Shown: positions 623 to 60,255 of the stretch, in pieces
Layout of the letters: each line of letters begins with the position of its first letter
Position numbering within the stretch: the first letter of the stretch is position 1
Assembly (NCBI RefSeq): GCF_030684315.1
Contig: NC_081367.1
Location: 25,340,792-25,404,791, forward strand
Reading direction: 5' to 3'
From: Stegostoma tigrinum
Lineage: Eukaryota
DNA: 64,000 nucleotides
Program-made: the position numbers and the translations under genes
Notes under the pieces: model-generated
What the model saw: only the letters and a program-made list of their open reading frames with translations
Databases searched by the model: none
What the model was told of the DNA's origin: nothing

Positions 623-2250
623 GGCCCTCCGCTTCTTCCTGTCCCGCAGGCCCGAACAATCCCCCTCCACCCACACCCTCATCCGCCTAGCCAAACTCGT
701 CCTCACCCACAACAACTTCTCTTTCGATTCCTCCCACTTCCTACAGAAAAAGTGGGTGGCCATGGGCACCGGCATGGGCCCCAGCTATGTCTGCCTCTTT
801 GTAGGATACGTGGAACAGTCCCTCTTCCGCACCTACACAGGCCCCAAACTCCACCTCTTCCTCCATTACATTGATTACTGTATCGGCGCCACCTCTTGCT
901 CCCCAGAGGTACTCGAACAGTTCATCCACTTCACCAACACCTTCCACCCCAACCTCAAGTTCACCTGGGCCATCTCCAACACATCCCTCACCTTCCGGGA
1001 CCTCTCAGTCTCCATCTCAGGTAACCAGCTAGAAACTGATGTCCATTTCAAGCCCACTGACTCCCACAGCTACCTAGAATACACCTCCTCCCACCCACCC
1101 TCCTGCAAAAATTCCATCCACTATTCCCAATTCCTCCGCCTCCACCGCATCTGCCCCCAGATGAGGCATTCTACTCCCGCACATCCCAGATGTCCACGTT
1201 CTTCAAGGACCACAACTTTCCCCCCGCAGTGGTCAAGAACGCCCTTGACAGCGTCTCCCGCATTTCCCGCAACACATCCCTCACACCCCGCAACCGCCCC
1301 CAGAGGATCCCCCTCATTCTCACATACCACCCCACCAATCTCTGGATACAACGCATCATCCTCTGACACTTCCGCCATCTACAATCCGACCACACCACCC
1401 AAGACATTTTTCCATCCCCACCCTTGTCTGTCTTCTGGAGAGACCACTCTCTCCACGACTCCCTTGTCCGCTCCACACTCCCCTCCAAACCCACCACACC
1501 CGGCACCTTCCCCTGCAACCACAGGAAGCGCTACACTTGCCCCCACACCTCCTCCCTCACACCTATCCCAGGCCCCAAGATGACCTTCCATATCAAGCAG
1601 ATGTTCACCTGCACATCTGCCAATGTGGTATATTGTATCCATTGTACCCGGTGTGGCTTCCTCTGCATTGGGGAAGCCAAGCGGAGGCTTGGGGACCGCT
1701 TTGCAGAACACCTCTGCTCGGTTCGCAACAAACAACTGCACCTCCCAGTCGCAAACCATTTTAACTCCCACTCCCATTCTTCAGACGACATGTCCATCAA
1801 GGGCCTCCTGCAGTGCCACAATGATGCCACCCGAAGGTTGCAGGAACAGCAACTCATATTCCGCTTGGGAACCCGCAGCCCAATGGTATCAATGTGGACT
1901 TCACAAGCTTCAAAATCTCCCCTTCTCCCACTGCATCCCAAAACCAGCCCAGCCTGTCTCTGCTTCCCTAACCTGTTCTTCCTCTCACCCCAAGTCGCAC
2001 CTCCATTTCCTACCTACCACCTCATTCTGCCTCCTTGACCTGTCCCTCTTCCCTGGACTGACCTATCCCCTCCCCTCTCTATCTTCTTTTCTCTCCATCT
2101 TCGGTCCGCCTCCCCCCTCTCCCTATTTATTCCAGTTCCCTCTCCCCATCCCCCTCTCTGATGGAGGGTCTGGGCCCAAAACATCAGCTTTTGTGCTCCC
2201 GAGATGCTGCTTGGCCTGCTGTGTTCATCCAGCTTCACACTTTGTTATCT
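623..2250 (+). mobile_element. Penelope-like retroelement, 5'-truncated: RT C-terminal half, GIY-YIG endonuclease and pseudo-LTR
   Basis: ORF 588-1583 has NNFSF..VAMGTGMGPSY..YIDY (catalytic YIDD mutated)..TDVHFKPTDSHSYL. ORF 1424-2038 has FTCTSANVVYCIHC..CIGE.KRRL.DRFAEH (GIY-YIG). A decayed hammerhead core lies at 2158-2185. Confidence 0.9.
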
Positions 2251-2600
2251 TCCATCCAAGGACTCTATTTACATCGCCCGCGACCAAGGAAAGATGGCTA
2301 ACATCATCAAAGATCCATCGCACCCTGATAATGACCTCCTATAACCTATTCCATCAGGCAGAAAAATACAGAAGCCTGAACACATGCACAAGCAAGTTCA
2401 GGAACAGCTCCTTTCTGGTTGTTGTCAGACTGTTGAATGGGGTCTAGCCTCAAATCATGTAACCTGCAATGTAACCTGTATGCCTCTCAGTCTTTCTGAT
2501 CTGTACATCTTTGCTGGCTGTGATCTGCCTGTACCACTCATAAACAAAGCTTTTCACTGCATTTCAGTATGCTTGACAATTAAATCAAAATCAAATCAAG
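2251..2600 (+). mobile_element. Rex1/Babar-type LINE 3' end, right part
   Basis: Resumes PSKDSIY..NIIKDPSHP..PSGRK..YRSLNTCTSKFRNS and ends in a short tandem tail (aaatca)n near 2580-2600. Confidence 0.7.
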
Positions 2601-4880
2601 AAACCTGAACCGTCCAGGTCAAGTACTTTTCATGATGTACACCATTCATTGGTCCAAACACATCATGCATTTCAGTCAAAACATTTTTTGCAGCTTGGTT
2701 CAAACCAACAACTTTTACCACTTTGAAGAATAAATAAGGGCAAGACTTGCAATAGCGACACCATCATATCAAGATCCTCTTCAAGTCACAGGCCATCCGA
2801 CTTGGATATGTACCATTCCTTCATCAAAATGTGGCACTCACCACCGTGCACCGCATGTGGACATCCTCACCAAACTGATGGCATTGCTTCAAGACCACCA
2901 GCTGGTCAGGCCATTTGCAAAGGGCAAGAAATTAAAACCATTGTCATAAAATCATATTCCCAGAATGACGTGTCTAAAGAGAAAACGGCCCAAGTTCCCA
3001 ACAGTGAAAGAGGTGAATTGCACATTAAAAGAAATCAATCGCCTGAAACAAAGTGGGTTTAGGTAGACCATCCCAGCGACTCAAATCGATGTTAACCAGG
3101 TGAAAAATTCACCAAACCCACGTGGCGGAGGGGTGGGGGTGTAATCGCCCTGTTAACGCCGACTTTAGCAAGTTTGAAATAGACGCACTACCTTCCAGCC
3201 AAATCGGCACCATGGCAACTTCAAAACAAAATGACATAACAAACTTGAATGGAACTGGCTGCGGAATTGAGCTTCAGTAAACAAAGCAGGGTGCCGCTTG
3301 AAAGAGGCTGCAGAGCAAGTTAAAAAATCAGGGCAGAATTCCTTACCAGTTTCCCCTGCTCCGGGCAGCTCGGTGGCCCAGCGATCGCTGTGCGACTCCA
3401 GCTGCTGCAGTCTCCTCTCCCCGAGGCCTCTGGAACCCAAAGCTTGCAGTTGTTCAGCGACTATTCCGCCTTCCCGAGCGTTTCTTGTCTTCATGTTAAA
3501 CAGTAGTTCCTGTCTCCCCTGCGCTCACACAGCGGGTGAAGTGAGTTTTGCAAACGGAACACTTTATGATAAAAGTCTTACTCGTACGTGTCTGGAGATT
3601 AATTTTGAATGTTATGTGCTCTCAGTAAGGTGCATCACCTGAACACCTGTTCCTTCCCACAATGAGCTGAGTAGCTGACGAATTCTAGTAACTGTCAAGT
3701 GAACAGACAGCTCTTTTCACCTTACAGGTACGGTCAGTGTGCACATCCGCGCTAAACTCAATGGGCCTCGTGTACCCCTTGTTTGTTGAATAGAGTGGAA
3801 TTTTCTACTTTTCGGAGTGTTTGACACTGAAAAAATTGAGGTTGGAGCATCTGGAATCGAGCAGTTTATTACTTAATAATTACTAATTTTCAAGATGAAG
3901 TATGAAGAGCTCACTCCAAGAATGCTAGATACAGTCTGTGTGAAAGTCTCGTTCACAGCATTTTCAAACGAATCTTTCTTGTGGCAAATTTAACTGATTT
4001 AGTTCTGTTCTGCATTCGTAATAATTACCCTGAGGTAAGAATTACTTCACCCGGTTTTTTTTTCAAATACCAGTATAAAAATTTATAACGGCAATTTCTT
4101 ACTAAAATGCGCTAAAGTGAACCCAACCAATAGGCTGTATATGAGTGGTAGAGTTTCTATTTTCTCTTTGTCCTTCCCAGATCATTTGTGTTGTGCATCG
4201 AAGTGACAATTTAATGATCAGTTTTTGTTGTTCCATGTACCAATGCTTCAGCATTTTGGAACTGCATATTACTTTCGAAAAGTACAACCAACGAGGAATG
4301 AAAGTAACGTTAGTTCAACGTAAGATTGAAGTACTCTCACGACAATCTAAGAGAACAGTCTGATCAGTACAAAACCACGGCAACTTTTGATACATATCTG
4401 TGTACGAGTCACTGACGAATTTTGCAGCTTGTGACGTTTCCCTGCCTTTTGTACCTAAAAATAGCAATAAAACGAAAATGCCATAACAAAAGTGTAAAGG
4501 AGAACAACGTCAATTAAAAGGATAAGCCTTCTTATTTAGGCTGCTACAGTGAATTCAAAAATATCTTCATGTTCTTGAACACAAACAAGCCAAGTACAAA
4601 ATTTAAACACAACCTCAAACTTGAAAGTCGTGTTCAGGAAGGTATAAAAGAAAAACGATGATGAATTCAACATATTTTAATTAAATATATATAAAACCAT
4701 TTCACTCTTCCTTGGCACTTGTTGCAGTAAATGCAACATCAGATCGATATCAGTTGCTTTTCGTTAATTAATTTCATTCAAGTTAATTGCATTGACATTA
4801 AACCATAGAACTGTACAACAGCGAAGGTTTTGTTTCATTTGAGAGTCATTGTTGAACACTTGTACAAATAGTCCGTTCAT

Positions 4881-4886
4881 TTTATT
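4881..4886 (-). terminator. Candidate SHOX2 polyadenylation signal (AATAAA)
   Basis: Plus-strand TTTATT about 950 nt past the stop codon in AT-rich UTR-like sequence; another lies at 3865-3870. Confidence 0.4.
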
Positions 4887-6117: not shown

Positions 6118-9100
6118 CTAAAACAGAATAAGGAGAGAACATTGTTACAAAGATACCCTGTCGTCAAAAAAAAGGAGACAGTGGTAACAAATCTTTAACT
6201 GATTAAAAAGCGAGAATGTTGTTGAATGGTGTTGGTGCATTCATCAATAGAGGAGAAGGACTAAAAGGGTTAAGCAGAGTTTGTCCAGTGCCTGCCTTCC
6301 AATGTGGCATCCAGCAAGCTGGGGGCACCGCGACAAACATTGTACAGATATCCAAGACTGTCTGGTTACTGGACTCTTATTGCTTGAAACCACAGAGTAA
6401 TACAAGAGTTTTAAACCATTGCTTCTGAGGAGACTGAAAAGGACAGTGAAAGTGGTTCATTGAATGCGGTATTTACCCCACAACTGGCGGTTCTACCACT
6501 TGAACACAGTCATCGAACGGACAATATAGTGGGGTCACGGGCTGTGGAAAACAGATTGTCTCACCAATGTACAGCAGTTAGACTCCATTGTTTCTAGGAA
6601 TGGTGAACACTTTGGCTCCGAAGTGATAAAGATGCCAGTCAGCCAAAGCACATTCCCTGGAAGCAACAAATTGTGTACTCCAAGGCGCGTCACCATGCAG
6701 ACAGCTCTAAACAAAAATGGAGAGTCCACAAAGTATAAAAGTGCCATTTGAAACAACACTTTTCCCCTCGCACATCATGACGAGGATCGCTGAAGTCAAT
6801 AAAGTATTTGAAAAGCATTTAGAAATCTCGATTGCAAAAGGGGTTGGATAGGAAAAAGACACAACACGGAATTTAGATTTTTGTTGGAGTGTTCATTACT
6901 TCGTTGAGAAAAAAAAATGCCTGGCATTTCGACCACTTTAGGGGCATCTCCCCACCCGCGTCCCCACGTCCCCTCCCTGCGCGGCCGATCCATTTCACTT
7001 TCTCCCCAACTCGTGCAATGGATAGCTCAGGGAATTAAAATGTGTTGAGTAATCACTTCACAAGACCTTAAGGGATGAGAGAATAACATTCTGAATTCAA
7101 CCAGCAAAATATCGAGGCAAGATAACACAATGAACAAAAAAAAGTATTGACAAAGTTTCAAGGCATAATCTGTAACTGTTGAGGAAGATCATTCAAAACA
7201 GGCCCTTTTGCCCAACAAGTCCACACCGCCCCTTGAAGCATCCCACCCAGACCCATCCCCCATAACCCACACACCCCTGAACACTACGGGCAATTTAGCA
7301 TGGCCAATCCACCTAGCCTGCACATCTTTGGACTGTGGGAGGAAACCGGAACACCAGGAGGAAACTCACGCAGACACAGGCACAACATGCAAACTCCACA
7401 CAGACAGTTGCCCGAGGCTGGAATCGAACCTGTGTCCCTGGCGCTGTGAGGCTGCAGTGCTAACCACTTCTTGAGCCCTAATGATGTAGAAATCTCCCAA
7501 ATCATATAAATGTCGGGTAGGGGTGTTACATCTGGATTTACTTCCGATTTGCATCAAGTAAGATGCATGCTGCTTGAAACACGTATTTGACTTACTGCTA
7601 TGCTGCAAAGTCAACGTAACCTGCAAAAACAGGTGCAGGTTCAAACGTGTAGAAGTCACCTGGTCGAAATCTCCCAGGGTTGCCATCGTAGGTGAAAACT
7701 GTTAACATTTCTGCCACCGTATTTAATAGAAGGCTAAAAGTTGTGCATGAAAATAAACAGGTTGATGCCTTTGGGAGATTAACTATGTTAATATGGTGAT
7801 ATTGGTGCACAGCAGAAATTCACTAAAGGTCTTTGGACAGCATATTCCCAACACGTCACCACTTCCATCTCGAAGGACAACAAATACGTGGGAACAACCC
7901 CTGCAAGTCCCCCTCCAAGCCACTCACTACTGACTCGGAAATACATATTTCCTTAAGTGTCCCTGGGTCAAAATCCTGGAATTTCCTCACTGAGGGCGTT
8001 GTGGGTCTACGTACACCAAATGGATTACAGCAGTTCAGGACGGCAGCTCACCACCACCGTCTCAACGGCAAACAGGGATTGGGCAATAGGTTCTGGCAAA
8101 GCCAGCGATGTGAACATCCTATGAATGAATTTAAAACTCAAATTGTCAATGAAGGATAAGAAGTAACACAGAAGTCGTATGTAAAATAGACAAATGTGTG
8201 CAAATGATTAAAATTCCGTTTCAATTGGTCAAGCATTTGCAAGTCTACACAAAGGGCAATTCTAAAATGTAATGTTCAAATCAACATCATGGACGAAAAT
8301 GCATAGGCAAAAAACGGGTTGTTCTGCGATAATTGTAGTCTCTTGAGCAGGATGGTAATCTCATAAATAAGGAATACAGTTTTGCTCGACAATTAGCGAA
8401 GAGTTCAGACATTTAAAAAAAACACTTCGTACTACACTGAGCATGTATCAGTATTGGCAGCTTTTACTGATAACATGGCATAACACGCCACATAACACGG
8501 ACAGTTAGGCGATAATGAAATACAACTCTTGGAAAATGGCGACTGAACCGAGAAAAAAATCCCCGAACAGATCGGAAAACATCATTGGTTTAGCTCCCTC
8601 TCGATGGTCAATGTTAATTTTGGGGGCGACGTGCAAAGGACAGGTATTGATACCATGTATACAGTATCAATATCGTGTTAGCGTTAATATGAACAGAAAT
8701 AATCAGAGGGTTAGATAGGGTGGATAGGGAGAGCCTTTTTCCTAGGATGGTGACGGCGAGCACGAGGGGGCATAGCTTTAAATTGAGGGGTGAAAGATAT
8801 AGGACAGATGTCAGAGGTAGTTTCTTTACTCAGAGAGTAGTAAGGGAATGGTACGCTTTGCCTGCAACGGTCGTAGATTCGCCAATTTTAGGTACATTTA
8901 AGTCGTCATTGGATAAGCATATGGACGTACATGAAATAGTGTAGGTTAGATGGGCTTGAGATCGGTATGACAGGTCGACACAACATCGAGGGCCGAAGGG
9001 CCTGTACTGTGCTGTAATGTTCTATGTCCTATGTAACCGCTCATAGAATAAGGGAAATGGTAGCTTTAAATAATTAGTCAAATTTTATTTCCAAATCAAG

Positions 9101-14695: not shown

Positions 14696-14863
14696 AGCTG
14701 TTCAGAGGAATACGTCCTTGTCTGTTCTTATTCTCTCCAATACATCAACCGTGCAATGTTTGTCTGTGGTGCGTCGTCTTGGAGTTGAAATGCAAACCTG
14801 ATCTTCCAGAATTCGGTTGCTCGGAGATGTAGATCTAGTACTGATGTGCTATTGAAGTCAGAC

Positions 14864-15120: not shown

Positions 15121-16534
15121 GAGGAATGACACATCGGAGAGCGCGGTGACTGGATCGTCCCTAAAGCCGGCGACATTACAACACCAAAGCACGCTAAAAT
15201 CAGGTAAACTTTTGATTTGCTTATGGTAAATCAACATATTATTTACAGTTTATACAATGGTTAACAACAGATATTTATACAATACACGCACACTTATAGA
15301 ACACTTTCAAAAATGCATTTATAATACTTGATAATCTGGTCATCGTTTTCTCCTGAATGTGTCAGGTTTACGTTAAACGCTTCGTAGTCATTTTCATCGC
15401 TAATTTAAATTAAATGAATACTTACATGCTAAATAATCCAAACGTGGTTACATTTCTTTATTGTTGCTGGAAACGGAAACGTACAAGAAAGTAAATGCAT
15501 CACTTCAGTCGCTGTTTTCTTGAAGGTATTTTAAATCATCAGTTGGCAGGTATCGCACCTGATAAAGTGTGGAAGAAGCGTGTGGAAGCATTTTTTGATG
15601 TAGAATTTTTGCAAAAGGGCTGCACATTGTCAGACATCCACTGGTCTGTGTGAGGAGATGTTTTGTGTGTTGTGTTTCGTGTCTATACATTCCGCGTACT
15701 TCACAGAAAGTACAAAATTGACCGTGCAAAAAGAAAGGTTAAGAGCCTAGCTTTATCTTTGTCCAATACCTTCTCTTTGTGCACAATTTGAAACATTAGA
15801 CATTTGAGAAGTTTTGAAGAACAAGTCGCTGGCTCTAACATTTCTAAAGATAGTTTATGCAGCTTTTTTCCCGCTTAAATACCGACAATCCCACGCGTAT
15901 TTGATTGAACCTTAAGTAATTTCGCTTGCAGTACCATCGTTGTCAAATACTTCTTGACGGTTTGAAGATGAACAATTTGCACTATTGATCCAACAAGTAC
16001 CTATTTACGTTGTATCTCAATTGAATCGATTACCTGCAATTCTGTCACATTCTTCATCAACTTAATATTTGTAAATAACAAACCTCGACTCTTCGTAGAA
16101 AATGCATCGAATTATTGCAAGGATGACACTAGATCCTAGTTGCAAACATATGTGCTACATCATTTCAGATGCATTTTCTGATTGTTTGGGACTGATATTT
16201 TGTTGAACGTTGCAATAAGGTAGCATTTATTTAAACATATTCCGTGTTACTCATTCTGAAAAGGCCGATGTATTATTTTTTGCCTGTAATTTTAATTAAT
16301 AAGAAACAAGACCGGAGGGAACCGGCGATCATCATCTTAACACTGATGTGGAGATCAAATGTTTAATGCCCTACGCAAAAAAAACTAGTTCACAAATTTG
16401 TTTGACTTAAAAAAGAAACGATGCAATTTCTATTCGGTATTGTTTACATAAATCCTGCGATCCTGGATAGTTTGAAAGAAATCAAAGTTTACAACTAGTT
16501 GAACTGTCAACTGAAGAACGCAATCTTATGGATG

Positions 16535-16667
16535 AATAACTGAAGATGGTGAAAATCTGAAAAAAAAACCACAGGAATTTCTGGGGAATTCAGCAAGCCT
16601 GGCAGCATCTGAAGAGGGAGAAATGGGGTTACGTTTCGGCTCCAGTGGCCCTTCGTCAGAACTTCAT
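16535..16667 (-). mobile_element. Short Penelope-pLTR-derived element with hammerhead core and 13-bp TSD
   Basis: Minus strand CTGACGA-AGGGCCACTGGAGCC-GAAACGTA at 16659-16630; flanks aatcttatggatg (16522-16534) and aattttatggatg (16668-16680). Confidence 0.7.
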
Positions 16668-18300: not shown

Positions 18301-18330
18301 TTACATTTCTTTCCACCAATATGTTCAGCT

Positions 18331-35104: not shown

Positions 35105-35238
35105 TTAAAAACCAAAAGAATTGTGGATGCTATAAATCAGGAACAAAAACAGAAGTTGTTGGAAATGCTCAGCAAGTGTGGCTGCATCTGTGAAGAAAAA
35201 AAAATCAGAGTTTAACAGGTTAACAGAGTTAACCTGTT
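35105..35238 (-). mobile_element. Short Penelope-pLTR-derived element
   Basis: Reverse of the cagatgctgccagacctgctgag..tttttgttcctgatttacagcatcc family; ends in a small hairpin AACAGGTTAAC-AGA-GTTAACCTGTT. Confidence 0.6.
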
Positions 35239-38200
35239 TATAAGACAGGTAAACTGTGAATTCAGAGTATTTTTAAAAGGTTTTAATTTGTGTGATGACT
35301 CCAGGAATAGAAGGGCTTGATTTTCAGTGTGCTACCCCTTTTGAGGAATAATACATCCTTGCCAGAAACCTCCATCTCTCAGTGTTTCGAGGATGTGGTT
35401 CCCACCTTAATTATGTGTGCTTCAACTGCTAATGATCACATTACTGAGGAGCTGATTTGTTTCTGATGTTGGTCACATATGCTAATTGAATACACCCTCA
35501 ATGAATCCAAGAATAGAACGTAAGGTTGTCATTTGTGGCAGCTGCATTACGAACTGCACAAAATGGGAACCCAAGATCATCATCACCCTTCAGCTGATGT
35601 GGACCCATCTTCAAATACAGAATTTCAAGCCTTAGGTCACCTCATTATGTGGCAAAGATACTCATCTTCCATATAATGGTGTACAGAAAACAATGGAAAA
35701 TTGTGCATTTAGAAGTGACAGTGAGAATGCCATGGTATTGGACCAACATATTTGTAGTGCAGAATTTTCTTCCATTGGGATTAGTACAGGCCGTAAAATT
35801 ACTTCTCCACATCAGGCTTCCTTGCAGGTCATTATTTAGTGATTTGTTCTGGTGCTGTGTGGTAGAGTTTGCTACTTAATCCTTGTAATCTCTGCATTGG
35901 ATAACTGGAGTATACATGGAGGCAACGTGTTTGGCCATGAGGATCCTTGAGAGTAGCAGCGTTCTGCCACCTAAGAAAAAGAGGTCATTTTTCAGACAGA
36001 ACAATATCTTCAGCACCCAAAATTGCAGAAACATCGGACAAAGCAATTCAGGAAGGCTTCCTTTGTGAATCTTATTCAGCGGAACCAGAGTTGTGTGAAG
36101 TCATCTTCACTGACTGCGAGTGTTTTCATGTTGAGTCCAGCATATGCTGTGTAAATTGTAAGTGCCCTTTAACAGTGTGATTTTTCTATTGGTTTATTGC
36201 TATTCAATTACAAACTGACGGAAGCCTTCACCACATCTAGCGCACCTTCATTTAATCCTGACAAAGTTCCATGCTAGAATGGTCCTGTGGAAAGGATAGT
36301 TATCATTCAGACAGCGTTAGAACATCTTGTGGTGATAAGGATGGCTACGTTCTCTGCGTTTACTTTTGCAATTTTAGATGAAATGACATTTGCACTCTCA
36401 GTTGATGATGAAAAGTGAACTTGTATGTACAAATGTGATAAAGATGCCGACTATGTGCCCTCACAAGGTTTTCTTTCTCATCCCACTACATCTTGATACA
36501 ATCCCAGGGCCTGCAACTGTGGTGCAATGAATCAACCCTAAAGGGGAACTGATTGGCATTGGCATTTTGGACAAATGACACCAGTGACTTTTTTGCCTAG
36601 AGTTTATAGGCACGTTAAGAGTGTTATACCTGGATATAGGCTTCCCTTCTTTGGCTTGAACTTCTCCAAGGCTGAGTGTTTGCTGGCACAGTAGAGGTGG
36701 ACAACGGTTGGCACCTGTGAGCAGATTCCTGGATGGTACCTGCTGTTCCCACCTTCATTTTTCTGAGAGGAAAGGGTGCCTGGACTGAGGTCAAGGTACC
36801 TGTTGCCTTGACTTTGGTGCTGAGCACCAATGGCTGGAGCACTGGAGAGCAAGTCTATGTGTATGCCTAGCAGACAGTTGTTCTGCTGGACCTGCAACTC
36901 TATGGCATCCATTAACCTCTCCACACAAGTGACCAGATGCCAAAGGCTGCATAGTACGGAAAGCACTGGTGGCATACTTTAACACGGAGCCAGTTTTCCA
37001 AGCCTCCATTAAGCTTGCTTGCTGCTCCTGTATTTGCTAGTGCGTTTGGATGAATTTTTAATGCCCAACATCATTGCTGTCCTCTCATGCCCAGGACTGA
37101 ACAGGTGCCTAGTTGCTGGCCAGTCTGAATGCCAATGACTTGGGATGTTTTCCTCAGACAGCTACAGAGATGAAGCAGTGTTGCAGTCACCAGAATATGA
37201 TCTTGACTGTAATTTTGCCCAAGTACTCACTGAAACCTCAATATCTGAATTGGTAGGCAGTGCAGGAAATAGCCTTGCCAGTACTTCCTCTGAGGGATCT
37301 TTTTCAAGAATGCAGGATGAGATGACATCTCGAAGGGCTGGCTTCTTATTGGTGGTGATTGTACGGATGCCAGTGGTACTTGTTGGAGGTAGAAATGAGA
37401 ATAAGCTGTGAAATAGCAGTCGAAGTTTGTCCATGCTAACGGCACATTTACAGTGCTGGTAATAGGAGAGCAGAGGAGCCCTTGACAATAAAATTTTCTT
37501 GGTTGCATGACCTTGGGGGTCTCAGCATCACTACTTGAACAATCACAGTCCTCTTCCCACTAAGGTAAGTAGTTTCTCCCCCTAAGAGGTTAGGAGACCG
37601 AATGTCAAGCAATTCAGAATCTGTCTTGGCTCTCTTTTCCATAACATGGCGCAGTTTCTCCTGGAGTCAGAAAAAGGAAGACTTGTGAGCTGAAAGACGC
37701 TGGCCCAACTTTTAATGTTGGTACAGGTGGAGGGAAGGGAGTGTGGTGTCCTGAGTAAGTGAGTGATTCAACAGTGCAGTGGACATACAAATTAGCATTC
37801 TCAGGCAGAGCAAGTGAGGGAAGATGCTGCATTCAATAGTGAAAGTAGACCATAAGCCTCTGTGGGTGGTGGTGCAGTAGCACTGTTAGAATGAGAGTGA
37901 GATAGCAGAAAGAAGTGGTGGCACTTCGCCAGTGGAAAGCAGAAGGTCACCTTCTTACACTCCTATGCGTTCCTTCAGATTGTGGACATCTCACTGTGCC
38001 ACGTGGCAAAGTCAGACTAAGCTGGTAGGGTCTGAATACTTGGCTAACCCTGAGTAAGGAGGTTGCCACTTCCATCATAGGACCTCCAGGTCCCTGCCAG
38101 CAAATTGGAATGCAAGCTTGCCAGTGGCAATTTTCTAAAATAAAGGTGTAACTAGGTTTTGTCCATATTTGTACCTCCTGCCAATGAAGGTAGGCAAAGA

Positions 38201-38584: not shown

Positions 38585-38778
38585 ACTGGCAGCATCTGTG
38601 AAGGAGAAAATAGAGTTAAAGTTTTGGGTTCAGTGACCCTTGCTCAGAACTCAGCTCTGGACCTGAAACGTTAGCTCTGTTTTCTCCTTCACAGATGCTG
38701 CCAGACCTGCTGAGCTTTTCCAGCAACTTTGTTTTTGTTCCTGATTTACAGCATCCGCGGTTCTTTTGGTTTTTACTT
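38585..38778. mobile_element. Fold-back Penelope-pLTR-derived element with TSD
   Basis: Inverted arms at 38586-38633 and 38657-38704; TSD tctaattgcaac at 38570-38581 and 38779-38790. Confidence 0.8.
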
Positions 38779-41807: not shown

Positions 41808-41999
41808 AAAGCTCAAAAAGCCTGGCAGCATTTGTGAAGAGAAATCAGAGGTAACTTTTCTGGCCTGGTGACTGTTTCTCCAGACCCAAAATGTTAACTC
41901 TGATTTCTCTTCACAGATGTTGCCAGACCTGTTGAGCTTTTCCAGAAACTTTTGTTTTTGTTTCCGATTTACAGCATTTGCTCTTCATTTGACTTTTAT
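41808..41999. mobile_element. Fold-back Penelope-pLTR-derived element
   Basis: Arms cctggcagcatttgtgaagagaaatcagaggtaac / gttaactctgatttctcttcacagatgttgccag; degenerate TSD attattgccg / attatcgcag. Confidence 0.7.
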
Positions 42000-43870: not shown

Positions 43871-44500
43871 TGGTAACCAGAATCTTGCTCAGTGTGGAAG
43901 AAATGAAAATGATGGAATTTCTTTGCTTTTTTGACTTATCAATGGCCTTAACACCTCTCAATATCTGATCTACTTTGCCAACTGTTATGAATATTGTTTT
44001 AATAGTTTGTTTTTTTTGTCATGATCTTATGAATATTTTAGTCTCCTGACAGGTTGTTTTCTTAGTTCAGTTCATCACACTAATTTGTAATGAAGACCTG
44101 TGCAGCTAGAAAATTGAAATACATGCTTTACATTTTAGCTATGCATATTACCTCAAGATGGGAACCTAATATGGAGTTGAAAGATAGCTGTGCAAATGAA
44201 TAAAATTATAGTAATAGCGTGCAGTACTCACATTTCAGTGAAGTGGATCACATTATAGTATGACTTTTGTTTTCATTATTTCTACAAAAGTTGCTGATAA
44301 TTACACCTGTGAAATGTCCAAAACAGATCAGTAGTTGGCATGCAGCTGTCCAATTAATATTATGATTTGAGCTCTTTCACAATGTGTCTAAAATAATCCC
44401 AACATAAAATTAAGTTGTATAAGCAAACTGAAACCTTATAACTTTCAACCTGATGTGAATTCATAATAGTTTACTGCAACACCAACAAGTTATTTGTTTA

Positions 44501-44691
44501 GGAGATAGTAGAAACTGCCGATGCTGGAGAATCTGAGCTAACACTGTGTGAAGCTGAAAAAACACAGCAGGCCAAGCAGCATCAGAGGAGCTGGAAAGTT
44601 GACGTTTCGGGTTGAGACCCGAAACGTCAACTTTCCTGCTCCTCTGGTGCCGCTTGACCTCCTGCGTTCATCCACCTTCACACTGTTATCT
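44501..44691. mobile_element. Palindromic Penelope-pLTR-derived element with a perfect 15-bp TSD
   Basis: Perfect 20-bp stem at 44593-44612 / 44617-44636, extending imperfectly to about 78 bp; TSD caagttatttgttta at 44486-44500 and 44692-44706. Confidence 0.88.
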
Positions 44692-44709
44692 CAAGTTATT
44701 TGTTTACCT

Positions 44710-46339: not shown

Positions 46340-46735
46340 CATAAAGATGTACAGCACAGAAACAGACCCTTCGGTTTAACTCGTCCGTGCTGACCAGATA
46401 TCTTAGATTAATCTAGTCCCATTTGCCAGCATTTGGTCCATGTACCACTAAGCACTTCCTATTCATGTACCCATTGAAATGCCTTTTAATTGTATCAGTC
46501 TCCGCCATCATCTCTGGCAAGTCATTCCATACACGCCCCACCATCTGCTTGAAAAGATTGCCTCTTAGTTCCCTCTTAAATCTTTCCCCATCATCTTAAA
46601 CCTATGCCATCTCGTTTTGGACTCCCCTACCCTAGGGAAAAGACCTTGGCCATGTACTCTATCCATGACCTTCATGATTTTATACACCTTTATAAGATCA
46701 GCCCTCAGCTTCTGATGGGCCACGGAAAATAGCCC
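46340..46735 (-). mobile_element. CR1-type LINE 3' fragment
   Basis: LRADLIKVYKIMKVMDRVHGQGLFPRVGESKTRWHRFK. Confidence 0.8.
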
Positions 46736-47436
46736 TATCATTAATACTTCATAATTTATTACCATTTTAAGTCCATCAGTTTGCCTTCTATTCTTCTTAC
46801 AAACATGACTCACATTTCACCTGTTTATAGTTTCTTGACTAATGTTTTAAATATACGTCACATGATATGGACAACAAAGTAGATTGTATGATGGGCTGTA
46901 GTGAACTCTGTTACACTCAGTACCTTCATGTTGCAATGTTATTATATCCTGGCTTCCCTCCAGACAAATCCTCATTGGGTCTGGAAATGTGGGGCTGGGC
47001 AGGGAATGGAATTTTAAAGTGCCACTGAATTAATTTGTCAATCCCTTGGTATACAAGGACATTTCTCCACATTATATTCCATCTGCCAATTAATTGACCA
47101 CTCAATGAACTTGTCCATATCCGTTTACAGCCTATTTGGTTGTCCTCATAGCTTTCTGTCCCACCTGACATGGTCTTGGAACCTAGAGACATTACACTTG
47201 TTTCCTTTGCCTAAATAATTTATATCGATTGTAAATGATTCTGTCTTAGCAGTGACTCTCTGGAACCCATACTGCTGCTAGTTCACCATGCTGGAAGTGA
47301 GGAAGAGTAATCTAGACTGCAAACATTGGCTTGTTTTTTTTCTCCATGTATGCTGCCTGACCTGCTTTGATCTCCAGCATTTTTTGTTTTCAGCTGGAAA
47401 TGACCCTGTTTCCTGCCCCCCAGCCAATCGTCCATC

Positions 47437-47722
47437 ATAGAATCTGTACAAAATCCCTTCAATGTGGAAACGGGCCATTCAGCCCAAAAAGTCCACAGCG
47501 GCTCTTCAAAGAGCATCCAGCCCAGATCGTTCCCCGACCCTATTCTGGTGACCCTGCATTTCCCATGGGCAATCCACCTAACCGGCACATCTTTGGACTG
47601 TGAGAACCCCATGCAGACACCAGGAGAATATGTAAACTCCACACAGACAGTTGCCTGAGGGTGGAATTGAACCCTGTTTGGTGCTGTGAGGCAGCAGTGC
47701 TAACCAATGAGCCACTCTGCTG
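47437..47722 (-). mobile_element. HE1/V-SINE-type shark SINE
   Basis: Same head, V-domain and tail (catagaatc..) as the copies at 7190 and 63657. Confidence 0.85.
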
Positions 47723-48095
47723 CCCAGGACACAGTAAACACTGTTGCACTGAGTATGCAGTTGGCCTTACTGTTCTTATCATGTATAGTCAAAGAACTGT
47801 CAGAGATGGGGATGCTGGGGGAGACAGAGAAGAGCACAGAGGTAAGCAGAGAGACAGTGACAGAGAAAGACAGACAGACAGACAGGGTGAACTGTAACTC
47901 TCTCCACTGTATCTGTCACTCTGCACATAAACCACCCCAAACCTCTCAAGTAGATTTCAATCTGTGACTCACTTTCACACATCTGCTATACTAGATATAA
48001 ACCATGTTGAACACCTCAATTAGATTTTTGTCCGTACCTTACTCCCCAGTATCAGTTATTCAAGATGTAAACCACATCAAACCCCACAAGAACTT

Positions 48096-48190
48096 ATGAG
48101 GAAGGGTCACTGGACCCGAAACGTCAACTCTGTTTTTCCCTTCACAGGTGCTGCCAGACCTGCTGAGCTTTTCCAGCAAATTTGTTTTTG
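48096..48190 (+). mobile_element. Short Penelope-pLTR-derived element with a near-intact hammerhead core
   Basis: ATGAGGA-A-GGGTC-ACTG-GACCC-GAAACGTC at 48096-48125, followed by the family body. Confidence 0.7.
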
Positions 48191-49490
48191 TCCCTCAACT
48201 ATACTGTTCGTAACTCACTCCTTGGTACCTGTCAAGGTACCAAATTCGGGTTGCTTAGTTCTGGCTGATGTTGAGCTTCTTGATTGTCAACAGAGTTGTA
48301 CTTATCCGACAGCTGCAGAGAATTCCATTACGTCCCTGACTCGTACCTTACAGATTCTGGATAGGAATGAGGAAATGAGTTTCTCCTCCCCAGCATCTAT
48401 TCTATTCTATTCTTGTCATAGAATTTATATGGCTGATCCAGTGAAGTTTTTGTTTGGTGCAAGCTTCTAGAATGTTGATAGGAGGCGAGGCAGCAATAGT
48501 AATGCAGTTCACTGTCAAGGAAGATGGTTAATTTCCCTCTGATAGAAGATCTGATTGCCTGGCATTTATTTGACAGAAATGATGCTTGCTTGTTAGCAAT
48601 CAAGCCTTTGTATCGTTTAGGTCTTGCTGTATGCTATGGAATTTGTCTGTCCATGTGTCTTAGGAGAGCCAGATGAAATTGTGTGTAGAATCTGCAGGAA
48701 GTTTCCAAAAGGAAATGCTTACAACCTGGCCAGTTGAGGAAATAATTTGAAAATGAAGATAGCAGTGACTTCACCAGGCTTTCGTGACTTAAAAGGATGC
48801 TGCTGGGAATCTATCTTTTTGCTGTTAATGATAAGACCAAAATTTTTTACCTGTGCTTTTCTTTCTTCTTTTATGTAATAAATCTATGAAAGCATTTTCA
48901 GCCTTGTGTGAATATGTGCAGGGACTGACCACCATGGGAGCAAAACTGCAAAAATAAAACTTTAATGTCTAAAAAGTCAGGTTTCATCAGTATTACCGTC
49001 ACATGGGATCATCATAATTCTTTGATGCCACAACTTGACAAAAACAGCCTTGATGTCATGGACCACTTGATTTCAGCTCTCTTGTCTTTGTATGGACAAA
49101 GGTTGTAATGAAGTATGGAACTGACTGGTCCTGGCAGAAGCCAAACTCAATATCAGTAGGCAGATGATTTCACTTGACCAATAGCATCTTCCATCAGTTT
49201 GCCTATGGTTGATTTGAGACTCATGGATCAACATTTGGCCTGATAGGTTCTGTCCACAAAAGTATGGACAAATCCAATGTGGACAATTTTCTGTATTGTT
49301 CATGGACCCTTTTCCTCCAGGTTATTGCTTGATTGACTATCACTACTGAAAACTGGATGTGGTAGCATTGCAGAACTTAGATCTAATCTATTGGAATTCA
49401 TGCATTAGAATTAACTCGAAAATTCAATGTGTTCTTTTTCATAGAATGATTATTTATCTTTATTTCTTAAGCTTTGAAAGACATTGAAAA

Positions 49491-49672: not shown

Positions 49673-50869
49673 GTGGGTCTTATCAGTTGTATGCTATAAC
49701 GTTAAGAAAGAAGTGTCATGAAGTTTTGAAGAAGAGTCAAACTTGATTTGAAATGTTGACTTTGATTTTGTTTCCACAGATGTTGCCAGACCTGCTGAGT
49801 TTCTTTAGCATTTTGTGTTTGGACCTGTTGCAAGATGCTTTTTACAAAATCAGCCAATATACCAGGGAAACAGCCATATCAAAGATTAACAGATATGAAA
49901 TTAACGTGGTTGTGCTATAAGATCCTGTTTGAACAAGAAATTTTTCAAAAGCATTGTTTCTATCTTGTTTTCTTTATGTATTAGATTACAGTTTCGAGTG
50001 AAAGATTTTCTGTTGTCGTCCCAGTTTTTTCCAAGCAATTTTTGGTCCCCTCCCCCCTCCCATAACACATCTTGTTTTGACAAATTTCATTCTTTTCATA
50101 TGTCACCACCAAATATTGTTCTTATTTTTCTTGTTTTGTCTTTTAAGGCAAAAGACAGATCAAATATTTGGGACTGGTTGTTATTGTCAGATACAGAGCA
50201 AGCAGCCAGAATTCTTATGACCAGTTGGGCAGCTAGTTATTGTGAAGTTTCGATCTGAAGTGATTTTATTCCAATTTAGATAATGAATAGAAATCACTGT
50301 AGGATGAATCTAGTTTAATTCACATAGGAGCACTGAAAATTCCGGCAAGTTAGAAACTTTGGAAATTGTTTTGTTACTTTGCTTTCCTTAGGACACTGTT
50401 GTAAAAAAATTGAGAATGGTATAATTGCCGCACTGTTGAAAATTATTTTATATTTCCATCTCCCAGAGATAACTTTGTTTGTTTGGTTGACTTTGGAAAA
50501 CTCTAGGTAAAGGTGAATTCCAGTTTTAGGTGAGCATAAACTTGAGAAAGTCATGCAAATACAATAACTGAGAAGATGTTTTGTCAAGTGAGGTGAACAA
50601 AGTGGTGTTTCTATGTATTCATTTGTTTATCTACTGAAATTAGTGTTAGTTCACTCTAATCAATATATTTTAGTTCAAACAGTAAAAAAAAGTTAGAAAC
50701 CACAATTTCTGATGGAATTGAAAATGATAGTTGTGAGATCCCTAGTAGTTCAGCATGTTCAGAGTATCATTTTGTAATCAAATTTGTTAAGTGTGTATTC
50801 TTGGACAAAAGAATGTAACTGCTGATATGAGAAAGTTTATGAAGTCATTGACTGATTGTAATGTCAGAG

Positions 50870-51135
50870 AGTCATGGAGATGGAAACAGACCCTCGGCCC
50901 AACTCATTCAAACCAACCAGATATCCTACGTAAATCTAGTCCTATTTGGCCCATATCCTTCTAAACCCTTCCTACTCCTATACCCATTCAGATGTCTTTT
51001 AAATGTTGTAATCATACCAGCCTCCACTACTTCCTCTGGCAGCTTTTCCCATGCACGTGCCATCCTCTGTGTAAAAAGTTGCCCCTTAGGTACCTTTTAT
51101 ATCTTTGCCCTCTCACCTTAAACCTGTGCCCTCTT
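50870..51135 (-). mobile_element. CR1-type LINE 3' fragment
   Basis: Homologous to 46340-46620 (gaaacagaccctcggcccaactc..ccactacttcctctggcagc..). Confidence 0.75.
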
Positions 51136-54235: not shown

Positions 54236-56289
54236 CATGTGAAGCACTGTGTGAATTGAGGATTAAACATTTGCATTGTTACTCTGTAACCCACTAGGAG
54301 ATGATGCCATTAGGTTGTAGCAAAAGGAAGAACGACCAAGGAAGGCATTTAACTGGACTCGAGTCCATGGCTGGTTAGTAGATAAGCAGTTATAAGTGAA
54401 GAAATGTCCATTGGGGCAGAGTACTGGAGCAGATGATTTTGGAAGGAATTCACAATTGGATTTGGTGAACAGAGGAAAACAAATGGAGCCTAAGGATATT
54501 AGTTCAGAAGAAGCTTTCAAGAAACATCCTGATCTTAAAGTAAAAGCCCTGTCTTTAACATTAAGAAAAATCTTAGTTCCTGATTGATGTGGTAGCACTG
54601 ATTCTACTCCTCAAATGAAATTGGAAATTCAAATCTGAAGAGCTAAGAAATAAACCACAAGCAGGATGCGTTTCCATATCTCTTCACCAAGGTATTTGAG
54701 CAATTGTTATTAAGGCTTAGTACTCTTTCCACCTTTAGTAATGGAGTCTGATTAACCAAATTTTAATTTTACAGGAGCTAGGTTATCCCCACATCCCCAC
54801 AGTCCTACTTCCAGCAGTAGTTCCTGTCAAAGATTTATTGTGGGAACGCTGTATTTTTTTAAAACCCATTTCCCTTTCTCAGAGAATAGTGAAATCAATC
54901 ACAGCTACACTAGTTGCTGTGCTGTTCTGTTCAGAATTGTCAATTTAGGCACCAACCAGCAATCAAACTGTAGACCTTACTGGTCTTTCTGGCTAATGTA
55001 AAGAAAGATGCATTCATATTTGCTTTCCTTGACTTGAAGAATAATTGATACTCTTTGAATCAGTGTTAACGTGATGAAAATTAATGAAGAACTGCTTTTT
55101 CCACTGAGTCTATACTCCTATGAAACTGAACTGAGATTGTCTAAATTTCTTTCATATAGGTTTACTAAAAAATCGTAAAACTTAATCGCTGGAAATCTGA
55201 AATAAAAACTCAAAAGTTGTGAAGAGTCTTAATCAAAACCAGAAATGTGGTGTAAGCAGCCCCCATTATGGGCCAGAACTAGGGGAAGGGAGCAACAGGT
55301 AACGGTTAGAATTTTTCAAAATTAATGACTAGGGGACAAGTTCATGAGAAAAGCTACAAACAGTTAAAAACTGGTGATTTAATAGATTGTCTGAAAGAGG
55401 CAGTGGAAACACCCTCAAAAACTGTAGAGTAAGAAAATTGTTAACTATGAAAAGCATGAGAAAAAGCATGAAGCTACGTCAAGTTGTAGTGAAAGGAGGT
55501 GGCAAGCATAAATAAGGAAATGTTGAAAAGTTTCTGATTATTATTGTTCAGAACAGAGTCCCCAGAAGATGCTATAATGATGTGTGCTTTTTTAGAGAGA
55601 TTTTTTTCCCTGACCTGCTTCCCTTGAAGAGGTTGTAGACTTGATGCAGAGATGTCTGCTCCGTGGAAAGCAGAGTAACTAGCTTTAGATTTTTTTTTAG
55701 AAATTATATAAAGGAAACATGAGTGGGTGGAGTCAGGCTCACACTGACCCGGGTTTTTGTTTTGCTTTCAGTTGTTGAAATTGGGTTTTTGGAGTTGAAG
55801 CTGCTTAATACTTCTGCAAAAGCTTGCGTTCTCTCTCTGCTGTGAGAGACATTCTTTCATTTTGCTGTTCTCCTGGACTAGATGAGGTAACACATGAGGG
55901 AAATCTGTTTTGCTGAATTTGCCTTTGCAAAAGGTGTGTTTAAGGGATGCTGCTATATTAGAACAGTTGATGAGTCGTAGTTAAATAATATACTATTTTG
56001 TTAAGCATTTCAATAGAGTTAAATTTATGTCAGTTCTTTATTTTTGCACCACAATTAGAATACAAACAAAAAGTGTGTTTTTCTTAAAGCCTAGTAGTTT
56101 GATCAATCAAAACACATCTGGGATGCAGTGCCTTACACTTGCCTCCAAGTAAGATAAAAGTTAGAGTGTAGGCGATCTCCTTGATACGTTTTGAAGGGCT
56201 TTGGTCATGTCCCTAACAAATTAGGGGGTTTGATCAGGATCAAAATCTCTAATTTCTGGTTGGGTTTGGGATAATTGGACTCCGACACA

Positions 56290-56420
56290 GACACTGACTT
56301 AGGAAGAGTCTGGACCCAAAACATGAAACTTTCCTGCTCCTCCAATGCTGTTTGGCCTGCTGTGTTCATCTAGCTTCACACCGTGTTATCTCAGGTTCTC
56401 CAGCAGTGGCAGTTCCTACA
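56290..56420 (+). mobile_element. Short Penelope-pLTR-derived element inserted in the LTR element leader
   Basis: ggacccaaaacatgaaactttcctgctcctcc..ggcctgctgtgttcatctagcttcacaccgtgttatctcag matches 2186-2250 and 44617-44692. Confidence 0.75.
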
Positions 56421-59400
56421 TATCACATTTCAGATGTTGCATTTGGTTGGTTTAAGTAGACTGTGCCTTGTATGATAATGGCTCTGTTGTGGCTAAGAGT
56501 TTCCTGGGTGTGGAAGAAATCACTTGGGATGGTTTACAGAGGTTTGAAATTGGCAGATGTGCTGGAGTTAAGATTGCCTATGCCCCTGAGGAAAAGGGAG
56601 ATGCTTGCAGCAATAGATCAGCATGTATAATCAACAGAAATGCAATCAGAATAATGGGAAATGGCTGAACTTCAATTACAAATAAAATAGCTTGAATATG
56701 AAAAGGAAATGAAACAGTGACAATTGAAAACAGAATAAAACGAACAAGAAAGAATAGCCCCAGCTAAAGAATGAGATAAAGAGTGAACTTTTGAACTTTG
56801 GAAGTTGGAACTGAAAGTAAAAGTCGTCATTTCATTTGAGAAAATAGCTAATCGAATAAAATAGCCAGGGGCCATGTGGATATTGCTGATTCAAGCAAAG
56901 TTGGTAAGTAGAGCTAGTGAGAGGCTTGTATTACTATCAGAGGAGATTTCTGGGGTATATGATGAGGTGAAAAAAGTCATCTTAAGTGCTTTTGAGCTCG
57001 TGTCAATAGCCGACAGACAGTGTTGTAGGAATCTAAGGAGGGAACTTGGTCAAATATGTATAAAGTTTGATAGGATCAAATCAAGTAATTTTAAGATGTG
57101 CATAAGGGCATTGAAAACAGGTCAAACATTTCATGCTGTTAGAGAGACTGTTACTTTGGAGGAGTTCTGAAATTCAGTTACTAAAGCAGGAGTTAAACTG
57201 CAAGATTAGCAGCAGAAATGGCAAATGATTATGAGTTAGTTCATAAATTAGTATTTGGTTTCTGACATCAACTTCAATCTGTAAGGGATAGAAATTGAGG
57301 AACAGAGAAATCCTCGGGTGGTAAGGGAAAAGGAGATCTCAGTGAAGATATTAAAGATGGTTTACTGCAGGTAAAGAAGGAAAACCATGGTGGGGAAAAA
57401 GAAGGAAAAAAATCTCAGTATATGAGTCTTAATAGAGTGCATAGGGCACCTCCTTAAAGCAAAAAGTTTGAATCAGTATTTGTGGACCATAATCAGTGTA
57501 ACTACTAGATTTCCAGAGATCATTCCATTATACAGTATCATGACTAAAAGGATTAAAAAGGATTACAGTAGAATCATGCAAATTTTTTGCTAGATACGGA
57601 TGACCCACAGAGATACAGTCAGATCAAGGATCCAATTTTACATCAATGTTATTTAGGGGAGCTATGGATAGTTTAGGAATAAAACCATTCAGATCCACTC
57701 TGTATCATCCAGAATTGCAGAGAACATTAGAACAATAGCATCAAACTTCAAAGACTGTGTTGAGGGCTTATAGTCAAGACTATCCACAGGATTGGGATAA
57801 AGGAATTCCATTTGTAATTTTTGCAATTAGGGATGCACCTAATGAATCAACTGAATTCATTCTATTCAAATTGGTTTTCGGATATGAAGTGAGAGGCCAC
57901 TTAAATTAGTTAAGGAGAAATTGGTGAGTCAGAGTTCAGAGACTACATATTTGGATGATGTGTCAAATTTTAGGAAGAGATTAAATAAAGCAGTGAGTTA
58001 GCTAGACAGCATTTAACAGGAAGCAGGTGAGATCAAAAATTCTGAATTCCACTCCTGGAGACAAAGTGCTTGTATTACTACCAGTGATAGGTGAACCTTT
58101 AAAGGCAAGGTTTAGTGTGCCTTATCAAATAGAAAGTAAGTTGAATGAAGTAAATTAATTGATAAGAACACCAAATTGAAGGAAAACTGTCATGTGAATG
58201 TTCTCAAATGGTATTTTGATAGGAAAGGGAAGCAAGAGTAGAATGTGCAACTGGTTACAACTCAGAATGAAGAACCAAATCCAGATGATTCTGAATTTGA
58301 CATTCCTCAAATTAAATTAGACAATGAAAAATTTCTCAGAAATTTGGATAAATTACTAAGTCATCTTCCAGAAGAAAATCAAATTGACCTGAAAAAGATT
58401 TATTACAATCACATGGAGAAATATGTAGAACAAGCTGGGAAGTACCAAATTGGTAAAGTGTATTGTAGATATAAAAAATGATGTTCCAGTTAAGCAACGT
58501 TCTGATAGGCTAACCCTCTAAAATTGGCGCAGGTTTAAAAGGAGATTGACAGGGTGTTCAGAGATGACGTAGTCGAAGTAAGTTGCACCAAGTGGAGCTC
58601 ACCCAAAGTGATGATGCCAAAATCAGATGGTACCCAACAATTATTTTTGAATGATTGCATTTCAATGCACTTCCGAAATCCGATTTGTACCCTATTTCAC
58701 ATTTGGAAGACTATGTTGAGAATGTCTGAGAAGGAACTTGTATTTCGAAGCTAGACTTACACAGAGGACACTGGAAGTGCTTTTAACCGAAAGAGCGAAA
58801 GAAAGATTGATCTTTGTGACATCAAATAGACTGTCCCAGTTTAATGTCATTCCATTTCACATGAAGGATGCACCAGCCACAGTTTAAAGACTAACCAACA
58901 AGGTAATTTCAGGATTACTCAAATGTGTGGTGTATGTGGACAATTTTTAGTCACACTTGGAAGAAACATTTGGAGCATCTATCAAAATTGTTCAGTCAAC
59001 TTAAGGAGGCAGGCTTGATAATAACTCTGGATAAGAGTCAATTATAAAAGCCCAAGTCACGTTCCTGGGCCATATCATTAGACATGGAGAGATGGCCCAA
59101 ATGGGATGTGAAAACAGTGGTTATTGGGGAATTTCCATACAGTCAACAAAAAAAGTACTATGATTCCTGGGACTGAGTGATTTTTATCAAAAATTCATAC
59201 TGATTGTCCTGTTGAAGAAGTGCAGAAAATTTCAGTGGAAGAGTTTCAGAAGGAATTTGAAAGCCTGAAAGCTGTGTTGTTCACTGTTCCAGTATTAGGG
59301 ACATCTACCATCACACAGCCATTCAAGGTGGCTATAGATGCATGTGATGTGAATGTCGATTTTGTACTTTTACAGGAAGATGACAAGAGGATAGAAAGAC

Positions 59401-59944
59401 CTATTGGGTATTTCTCCTGAAAGTTAAATATTCATCAAAAAAAAATCCACCATTGAGAAAGAGACCATAACTTTGGTGTTGGTGTACAATAATGGCAACA
59501 TAAATATTGAAATAATGTATCAGAAATGTACTGATCATAACCCCTTAATGTTCGTAGAGAAATTTAGGGCAAAAAATACCAGACAGTTTAGATGGAGTTT
59601 ATTGTCACAGCCATTCAATTAGATAATTATACATGAGACAGGATGACCGAACATAATTGACGATTCATTGTCGCGATTTTGATGACGGGAGATGTTCGGT
59701 GGTGGAAGAAACAGATTGATATGGACTGTAGTATTGATTGTTTGCATGGATAAAGTGGTGTACAAATAATGTGAGAGTAAAGTCTTTGAAAATGAAGCCA
59801 TCTTTATATATTGATGGTTAATTTCTTTTATGGGGGAAGGTGTGATGATATGTGCCTTTAAAAAGGAATTTACTCTGTCCCATTTCTTGGTAAACTTGGT
59901 GCAGAGGAACACGCTTCATGGAAAGCAGAGTTAATAACTTTGAG

Positions 59945-60094
59945 AGATAGTAGGAACTGCTGCTGCTGTAGAATCTGAGATAACACGGTGTGAAGCTGGA
60001 TGAACACAGCAGGCCAGGTAGCATTAGAGGAGCAGGAAAGCTTGGCGTTTCGGGTCGGGACCCTTCTTCAGAAGGGTCTTAATAACTTATTATC
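59945..60094 (-). mobile_element. Short Penelope-pLTR-derived element in the 3' LTR, with a 14-bp TSD
   Basis: Minus strand CTGAAGA-A-GGGTC-CC-GACCC-GAAACGCC at 60071-60044; TSD ttaataactttgag at 59931-59944 and 60095-60108. Confidence 0.82.
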
Positions 60095-60255
60095 TTAATA
60101 ACTTTGAGGCTTTGTTTTTAAATTAGACAAAAGAAACTTGAGTGGGTGGAGTCACACTCTCACAGACCCAGGGTTTTAGTTTTGCTTTCAGTTGGTGAAG
60201 TTGAGGTGTGGGAGCTGAAGCTGCTTGACACTGCTGTCTCTCTGCTACCGCAAAA

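Follow-up and report, generated by a model that had tools for sequence, protein, structure and literature searches.

Short hammerhead-bearing copies in a 64-kb segment of the Stegostoma tigrinum genome are terminal modules of Penelope-like elements

Introduction

What are the short, non-coding repeats with a hammerhead ribozyme motif that are scattered over a 64,000-nucleotide stretch of the shark Stegostoma tigrinum (contig NC_081367.1, positions 25,340,792 to 25,404,791; the whole stretch is called the window below)? The original prediction took them for a family of tiny non-autonomous retroelements, a retrozyme-like system, in which units insert independently and the folded ribozyme fixes the element boundary. 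The analysis presented here leads to a different identification. The short copies are not a retrozyme system. They are terminal modules of Penelope-like elements (PLEs), because the unit of one subfamily forms the end of a recognizable PLE at 625-2250 and a gene model, P0096, joins the peptide of the other to a PLE region.

Results

The copies and their parent element

All-versus-all blastn and alignments relate 11 loci with 14 arms, the ten loci listed in the original prediction plus a locus at 2158. They divide into subfamily A (2158, 44501, 56299, 59945) and subfamily B (16535, 35105, 38586, 41808, 47298, 48089, 49720). Since the A profile matches B copies, with E values down to 7e-11, the two subfamilies are homologous; profiles built from the 14 arms detected no additional locus at E<0.1 in the 64 kb. 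By the blastn, alignment and profile results the earlier count of about ten related copies in two subfamilies is real. The locus at 2158 is no tiny element: it forms the 3' end of a longer PLE fragment (about 625-2250) in which coding remains of reverse transcriptase (RT) and of GIY-YIG-like type are recognizable.

This 1.6 kb element has a short 3' end at +65 in its pseudo-long-terminal-repeat (pLTR) end (arm coordinates, here and below, are counted from the hammerhead cut site), and its translation shows a frameshifted RT, a Cys linker and GIY-YIG-like remains. The RT part has 95 homologues. Whale shark, bamboo shark, zebra shark and rays supply the best of them, which by itself would make a carpet-shark relative the likely source of the window. 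Several relatives carry PF00078 and PF01541; direct Pfam scans of two open reading frame fragments from the window returned no family. The Cys linker motif, a feature of Neptune/Nematis-type elements, is decayed in the window copy and present in relatives. The subfamily A unit is the last ~100 nt of the element. As for subfamily B, gene model P0096 has a B-unit peptide joined to a PLE linker/endonuclease region (E 2e-11 against the PLE protein P0015); a search with the A-type peptide gave one weak match, P0097 (E 0.25), without a PLE link. Use of a Penelope RT/GIY-YIG protein is thus supported by the position of the unit at the end of a PLE. The characters of endonuclease-containing (EN+) PLEs found in the window are an RT/GIY-YIG parent, a pLTR hammerhead, an optional tail of 30-40 nt, and an inverted 5' copy together with a target-site duplication (TSD).

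An alternative is that the copies are a separate short non-autonomous family, a mini-PLE resembling a short interspersed nuclear element (SINE), whose master RNA starts at about -38 and is copied in trans by the PLE protein. Short non-autonomous Penelope elements are described in Heliconius (PMC6685494) and Chlamydomonas (PMC8557442), and the profile search detected no long B copy in the window, as such a family would lead one to expect. However, the A unit is contiguous with the coding PLE at 625-2250, and P0096 links the B end to coding sequence of a PLE. We consider a separate family unlikely, a judgement to which the 5' ends described below also contribute.

Two further observations concern the units themselves. 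In B arms (38673-38697, 48126-48150 and others) the ribozyme is followed by a pyrimidine tract and a CAG that abuts a conserved ATG, an arrangement resembling a 3' splice site. From the conserved ATG a short hydrophobic peptide is predicted to be encodable in A and B alike.

Target-site duplications and an empty site

Clear TSDs flank four of the 11 loci, at 16522/16668 (13 bp, 1 mismatch), 38570/38779 (12 bp, exact), 44486/44692 (15 bp, exact) and 59931/60095 (14 bp, exact). A weak fifth candidate is seen at 47290/47393 (11 bp with 1 mismatch), and at the six remaining loci TSDs were looked for and none was found. To gauge the chance level, exact matches of at least 12 bp were counted in random window pairs and occurred in 2 of 300. 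The AT content of the four TSDs is 76%, against a background of 60%. The flanks of the 59.9 kb insertion, both of them, also align at 55640-55760, where a single TSD-like copy is present and the element is absent. This empty site derives from a local duplication in which 55600-56206 and 59850-60960 are ~67-82% identical. The four previously reported TSDs of 13, 12, 15 and 14 bp are therefore present, the first with its single mismatch, and together with the empty paralogous site they uphold the claim that the copies were inserted as independent units.

The duplicated segment is itself split near 60.2-60.6 kb by a copy of a four-copy repeat family (7196-7466, 47468-47728, 60267-60633, 63654-63979). 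This family resembles the shark HE1 SINE or the tail of the HER1 long interspersed nuclear element (LINE).

Two 3' sites and clustered 5' ends

The 3' ends fall into two groups, with five arms ending at +63 to +70 and seven at +95 to +108; the other two arms are inverted ones ending at +32 and +45. The two sites are ~35 nt apart in both subfamilies, and this interval is the known PLE 'tail', which in the Poseidon element of Anolis carolinensis (PAc) is bounded by two internal RT start sites on the 3' side of the hammerhead (PMC11167929).

The 5' ends lie at -38, -38, -37, -36, -30, -30, -28, -27, -19, -19, -16, -16, about -3 to +1, and -1561, so that 13 of the 14 arms begin between -38 and about +1. 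When one arm is taken per locus, at least 10 of 11 start in a 38-nt window (P<=1.2e-6 under the best-fitting exponential truncation), and copies with a short and with a long 3' end do not differ in the element position of their 5' ends. These data bear on the simplest alternative, ordinary random 5' truncation with a clustering that stems from ascertainment on the ribozyme motif. Long copies are indeed abundant, and read depth falls gradually across the coding region. Nevertheless, the profile search found no tail-only copy without a ribozyme at E<0.1, and the shared 5' position of copies with short and long 3' ends largely refutes random truncation in the window; we give it next to no weight.

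It had also been claimed that most copies begin at or within the catalytic core. The clustering at the ribozyme is borne out, but in four of the nine B arms the common start, at -36 to -38, precedes the core by 6-8 nt, so that the 5' strand of stem I is included. Such a shared start would suit a mini-PLE with its own master RNA; against this, the 5' ends still spread over -38 to about +1, and the copies show neither an internal deletion nor an added module that would mark them as a derived family. Sequence upstream of the cut is retained in 12 stub arms, so that the RNA serving as template had not been cleaved. For Poseidon, uncut RNA is reported as the dominant template in vitro, with both DNA strands cut and extended (PMC11167929).

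Palindromes and junction patches

Three of the 11 loci (38.6, 41.8 and 44.5 kb) are palindromes. The arms at 44.5 kb differ at their 3' ends, the tail being present in one (+100) and the other stopping at +63, the short site. In the palindromes at 38.6 and 41.8 kb it is the inverted arm that extends further 5' (-36 and -30, respectively); it ends in mid-element, and the complete arm begins at -16. A fourth fold-back, of 9 nt, is present at 60070-60078 in the 59.9 kb copy and is followed by a 10-nt copy of the target that opens a 16 nt patch. The ~60-nt patch at 35.1 kb consists largely of local direct and inverted copies. All three fold-back dimers noticed in the original prediction are thus real, but only that at 44.5 kb is symmetric and centred in stem II. 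Nor do they represent a fixed palindromic unit, since neither their centres nor the lengths of their arms agree, and PLEs typically insert with an inverted 5' copy. Published PLE insertions include inverted 5' copies whose tail is on one side only, junctions of palindromic form that have been attributed to self-priming, and solo pLTRs (PMC3846280, PMC8557442).

As the centres differ between loci, the fold-backs are likely to have arisen during insertion. Simple snap-back could not produce the form seen at 38.6 and 41.8 kb, whereas priming from two strands and joining of two cDNAs could. A scan for hairpins able to pair the cDNA 3' end gave no discrimination, most positions qualifying.

The hammerhead

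The consensus is a minimal type I hammerhead with the core, an extra base after position 9, a 5-bp stem II, a short stem I, and a palindromic stem III without a loop. Published minimal PLE hammerheads are likewise type I, lack a stem III loop, and have a palindromic 15.2-16.2, an extra base after position 9 and G10.1-C11.1 (PMC4209133). In stem II, 82% of cells are paired and one change affects both sides. None of the nine core-spanning arms has the full catalytic core and both stems, and folds of single copies are no better than those of shuffled sequences (z 0.24, -0.03, 1.07 and -1.36). Rfam gave no hammerhead match at E<=1, only weak miRNA-like matches on two palindromes, and a hammerhead pattern search of viral and metagenome contigs gave 0 matches. 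The hammerhead is a feature of the consensus. A 9-bp helix 3' of the ribozyme is predicted across A and B with little covariation and is no more than a candidate RT-start signal.

These results, together with the ends, bear on the retrozyme interpretation, according to which the hammerhead would cleave transcripts of tandem units, and the resulting RNA of unit length, linear or circular, would be reinserted. The type I hammerhead, TSDs longer than 4 bp and PLE derivation are shared with retrozymes (PMC7229834; bioRxiv 2026.07.22.740005), and one contig in X17 joins 2247 back to 2166. Yet head-to-tail tandems are found at 0 of 11 loci, a start near the cut site is seen in one of the 14 arms, the motif belongs to the minimal PLE type without a stem III loop, and the X17 join is a single contig whose joint lies away from the cut site. 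We regard a retrozyme cycle as very improbable, and the label 'retrozyme-like' is not supported, as the window has no head-to-tail hammerhead tandems and the ends are not at the cleavage site.

Reads from the wider genome

Reads were aligned to window positions 1300-2290 with the A1 copy as reference, and summed contig depth was not used as copy number. In run X1 the depth is 1.8-7.5M over 1334-2183 and 18-22M over 2184-2251, which fits an excess of short ends. In the same run 5,876 contigs depart from the reference at 2249-2251 into AT-rich sequence of low agreement. Among the 15 joints listed (there were 356 others), all five opposite-strand joints lie at 2159-2204. Three are within the ribozyme (68, 138 and 74 reads), and two, with 105 and 70 reads, lie immediately 3' of the cut site; they join 2201 or 2202 to 2204 and form a second inversion hotspot at 2201-2204, with 175 reads, outside the ribozyme.

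In the remaining alternative, RT on a long transcript stalls at the folded ribozyme, or at a dimer of ribozymes, and the stall defines the boundary. Thirteen of 14 arms start in the ribozyme region, four of them in stem II or its loop (-16, -16, -19, -19), and the joints from 2175 to 2179 and from 2159 to 2175, among those listed, also count in favour of stalling. An RT moving 3' to 5' would, however, meet the 3' side of the ribozyme first, yet eight of the 14 arms reach -27 or beyond, past stem II. The poor folding of single copies, the position of the 2201-2204 hotspot 3' of the cut site and the many A1 copies that run upstream through the ribozyme also speak against stalling, which we find decidedly unlikely. 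The proposal that the ribozyme fixes the boundary holds in part: self-priming at stem II is supported for the 44.5 and 59.9 kb copies, and RT stalling fits poorly.

Two observations on the reads stand apart. In X17, which was not treated as RNA, the contig linking 2247 (the short 3' end) back to 2166 (stem II) defines a unit of 82 nt and may represent a tandem stub or a circle. In run X14, the consensus of bisulfite loose ends at 2160-2190 retains G at both ribozyme CpGs while other Gs are converted, which suggests that these ribozyme copies are CpG-methylated.

Coordinates and other repeats

Table 1. Element copies and related features in the window. Positions are those of the window; arm ends are relative to the hammerhead cut site.
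Feature	Position	Strand	Details
5'-truncated, frameshifted Penelope-like element within a LINE-like fragment	~625..2250	+	RT C-terminal part, Cys linker, GIY-YIG-like domain, pyrimidine-rich 3' region, pLTR end
Decayed minimal type I hammerhead of the 625-2250 element	2158..2185	+	C3 = 2158; stem II 2166-2177; cut site after 2185
Subfamily B stub, 5' end -38, 3' end +95	16535..16667	-	TSD 16522-16534 / 16668-16680
Subfamily B stub with long tail (35105-35212), 5' end near cut site, then ~60 nt junction patch	35105..35275	-	
Subfamily B asymmetric palindrome: inverted arm -36 to +32, main arm -16 to +103	38586..38778	.	TSD 38570-38581 / 38779-38790
Subfamily B asymmetric palindrome: inverted arm -30 to +45, main arm -16 to +104	41808..41999	.	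No clear TSD
Subfamily A symmetric palindrome, both arms -19, centre in stem II	44501..44691	.	TSD 44486-44500 / 44692-44706
Old subfamily B stub, -30 to +66	47298..47393	+	Weak 11 bp TSD candidate
Subfamily B stub, -37 to +70	48089..48195	+	
Old subfamily B stub, -38 to +70	49720..49827	+	
Empty paralogous site of the 59.9 kb insertion	55640..55760	+	Single TSD-like copy ~55677-55690, no element
Subfamily A stub, -27 to +96, tail present	56299..56421	+	
Subfamily A stub, -28 to +99 (59945-60071), 9 nt fold-back (60070-60078), 16 nt patch	59945..60094	-	TSD 59931-59944 / 60095-60108

The window holds other repeats. Two related ~220 bp copies lie at 32997-33261 and 34194-34401, the first with a weak match to SCARNA6 (19 bits against a gathering threshold of 68; E 0.009 in a local search); they are possibly diverged scaRNA genes or an old repeat. 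From ~18300 to 28600 there is ~10 kb of purine-rich (G-rich on the plus strand), low-complexity, satellite-like sequence with several repeat units. Two ~260 bp copies of another repeat, at 46359-46612 and 50883-51134, are 69% identical.

Discussion

The results allow us to address how the copies came about. They are probably short insertions of the terminal module of shark PLEs (the pLTR, the minimal hammerhead and an optional tail of ~35 nt), made by the RT/GIY-YIG protein of the element from uncleaved RNA and ending near the ribozyme through run-off or fold-back at stem II. What was observed directly for this explanation is the identity with the PLE end, the TSDs, the empty site, the two 3' clusters, the 5' ends upstream of the cut and the variable inversion centres. 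In the sequence of events that we envisage, the PLE protein would nick AT-rich DNA with a stagger of 12-15 bp, and RT would start internally on the uncut RNA, at about +65-70 or +95-108. A start signal would also lie near the 5' end of a pLTR-initiated transcript, and priming there would yield a cDNA of 100-140 nt; a Penelope transcript of D. virilis is reported to have its start within the pLTR, not far upstream of the ribozyme (PMC2377424, with PMC4209133). The cDNA would then run off the RNA 5' end near -38, just upstream of stem I, or fold back at stem II. The inverted arm and the patches would be made at insertion, by snap-back of the cDNA at 44.5, 59.9 and 35.1 kb, and, in the case of 38.6 and 41.8 kb, by use of the second nicked strand as a primer and joining of the two cDNAs.

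Several points weigh against this explanation. The RNA 5' start near -38 is deduced, none having been observed, and the sample is small (n=11 loci). The B parent link is a single gene model (P0096), and stem covariation of the ribozyme is not above that of shuffles. Among the reads, X1 shows no depth step at the 5' edge of the ribozyme (4.6M at 2116-2149, 4.1M at 2150-2183, with the A1 reference), and its 4-5-fold step at 2184-2251 may in part reflect other subfamilies that share only the end. No site was listed at which a fifth of the molecules begin. Long copies are common, with 13,181 X14 bisulfite reads spanning the upstream tract into the ribozyme; the joint positions come from bisulfite reads, in which conversion shifts positions and hides C-rich upstream regions.

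A more specific and, in our view, doubtful possibility is a distinct short cycle. Its RNA would begin just upstream of stem I, and a dimeric RT/endonuclease would use both nicked strands as primers at the 5' copy of its start signal, perhaps with two RNAs paired as a ribozyme dimer; the joined cDNAs would give TSD-flanked head-to-head mini-elements. If this were true, the stubs would be a genome-wide record of PLE transcript starts and would explain the long-unexplained inverted pLTR.

With or without such a cycle, insertion of the PLE terminal module from uncleaved RNA makes the stubs a clue to how PLE 5' junctions form, not a new system. Completion of the 5' junction, the reason for the inverted pLTR and the role of the ribozyme are still open questions for PLEs, the later steps being described as unvalidated in the available part of PMC11167929. 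A single assembly would be enough to test them, since sharks offer thousands of minimal insertions in which 3' starts, 5' ends and inversion centres can be mapped. The stubs would also explain many isolated minimal hammerhead matches as uncleaved, decayed PLE stubs, not working retrozymes. The insertion architecture as such is already published for PLEs. A literature search, with subscription journals mostly outside it and Repbase/Dfam not covered, returned no paper on this shark family or on the clustering of 5' ends at the ribozyme.

Comparison with known systems

Metazoan non-LTR retrozymes (PMC7229834; bioRxiv 10.64898/2026.07.22.740005) are, like the present copies, short and non-coding, with a type I hammerhead and kinship to PLE pLTRs. 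As described in those sources, however, they are head-to-tail tandem units cut to circular RNA, whereas the shark copies are single or head-to-head and end away from the cut. A likeness of another kind is offered by target-primed reverse transcription (TPRT) of R2, in which snap-back junctions form when the cDNA 3' end primes on itself or on nearby target DNA, often after full-length synthesis (PMC11371274). The snap-back 5' junctions reported there resemble those at 59.9 and 35.1 kb, although R2 belongs to another class of retroelement and the system was engineered.

The consensus motif shares the features of the minimal PLE hammerheads of PMC4209133, which mostly occur as single genome-wide motifs, with some close opposite-strand pairs ascribed to truncated PLEs. 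Sharks are not among the genomes named in the portion of that paper available, and boundaries and TSDs, unlike here, are not tabulated in it. Poseidon PAc (PMC11167929) is alike in its two RT start sites, uncut RNA template, AT-rich targets and the cutting and extension of both strands; it belongs to another clade, and the available text of that study neither maps genomic stub 5' ends nor explains palindromes.

The closest correspondence in architecture is with insertions of EN+ PLEs with a Neptune-type linker (PMC3846280, PMC8557442). As far as these accounts go, they share with the shark copies a parent that combines RT with a GIY-YIG domain at the C terminus, TSDs, a head-to-head inverted copy, a one-sided tail of 30-40 bp, and solo pLTRs. 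The shark copies differ in being mostly 100-140 nt long, in having TSDs of 12-15 bp as against 8-10 bp in the rotifer examples, and in the clustering of their 5' ends at the ribozyme.

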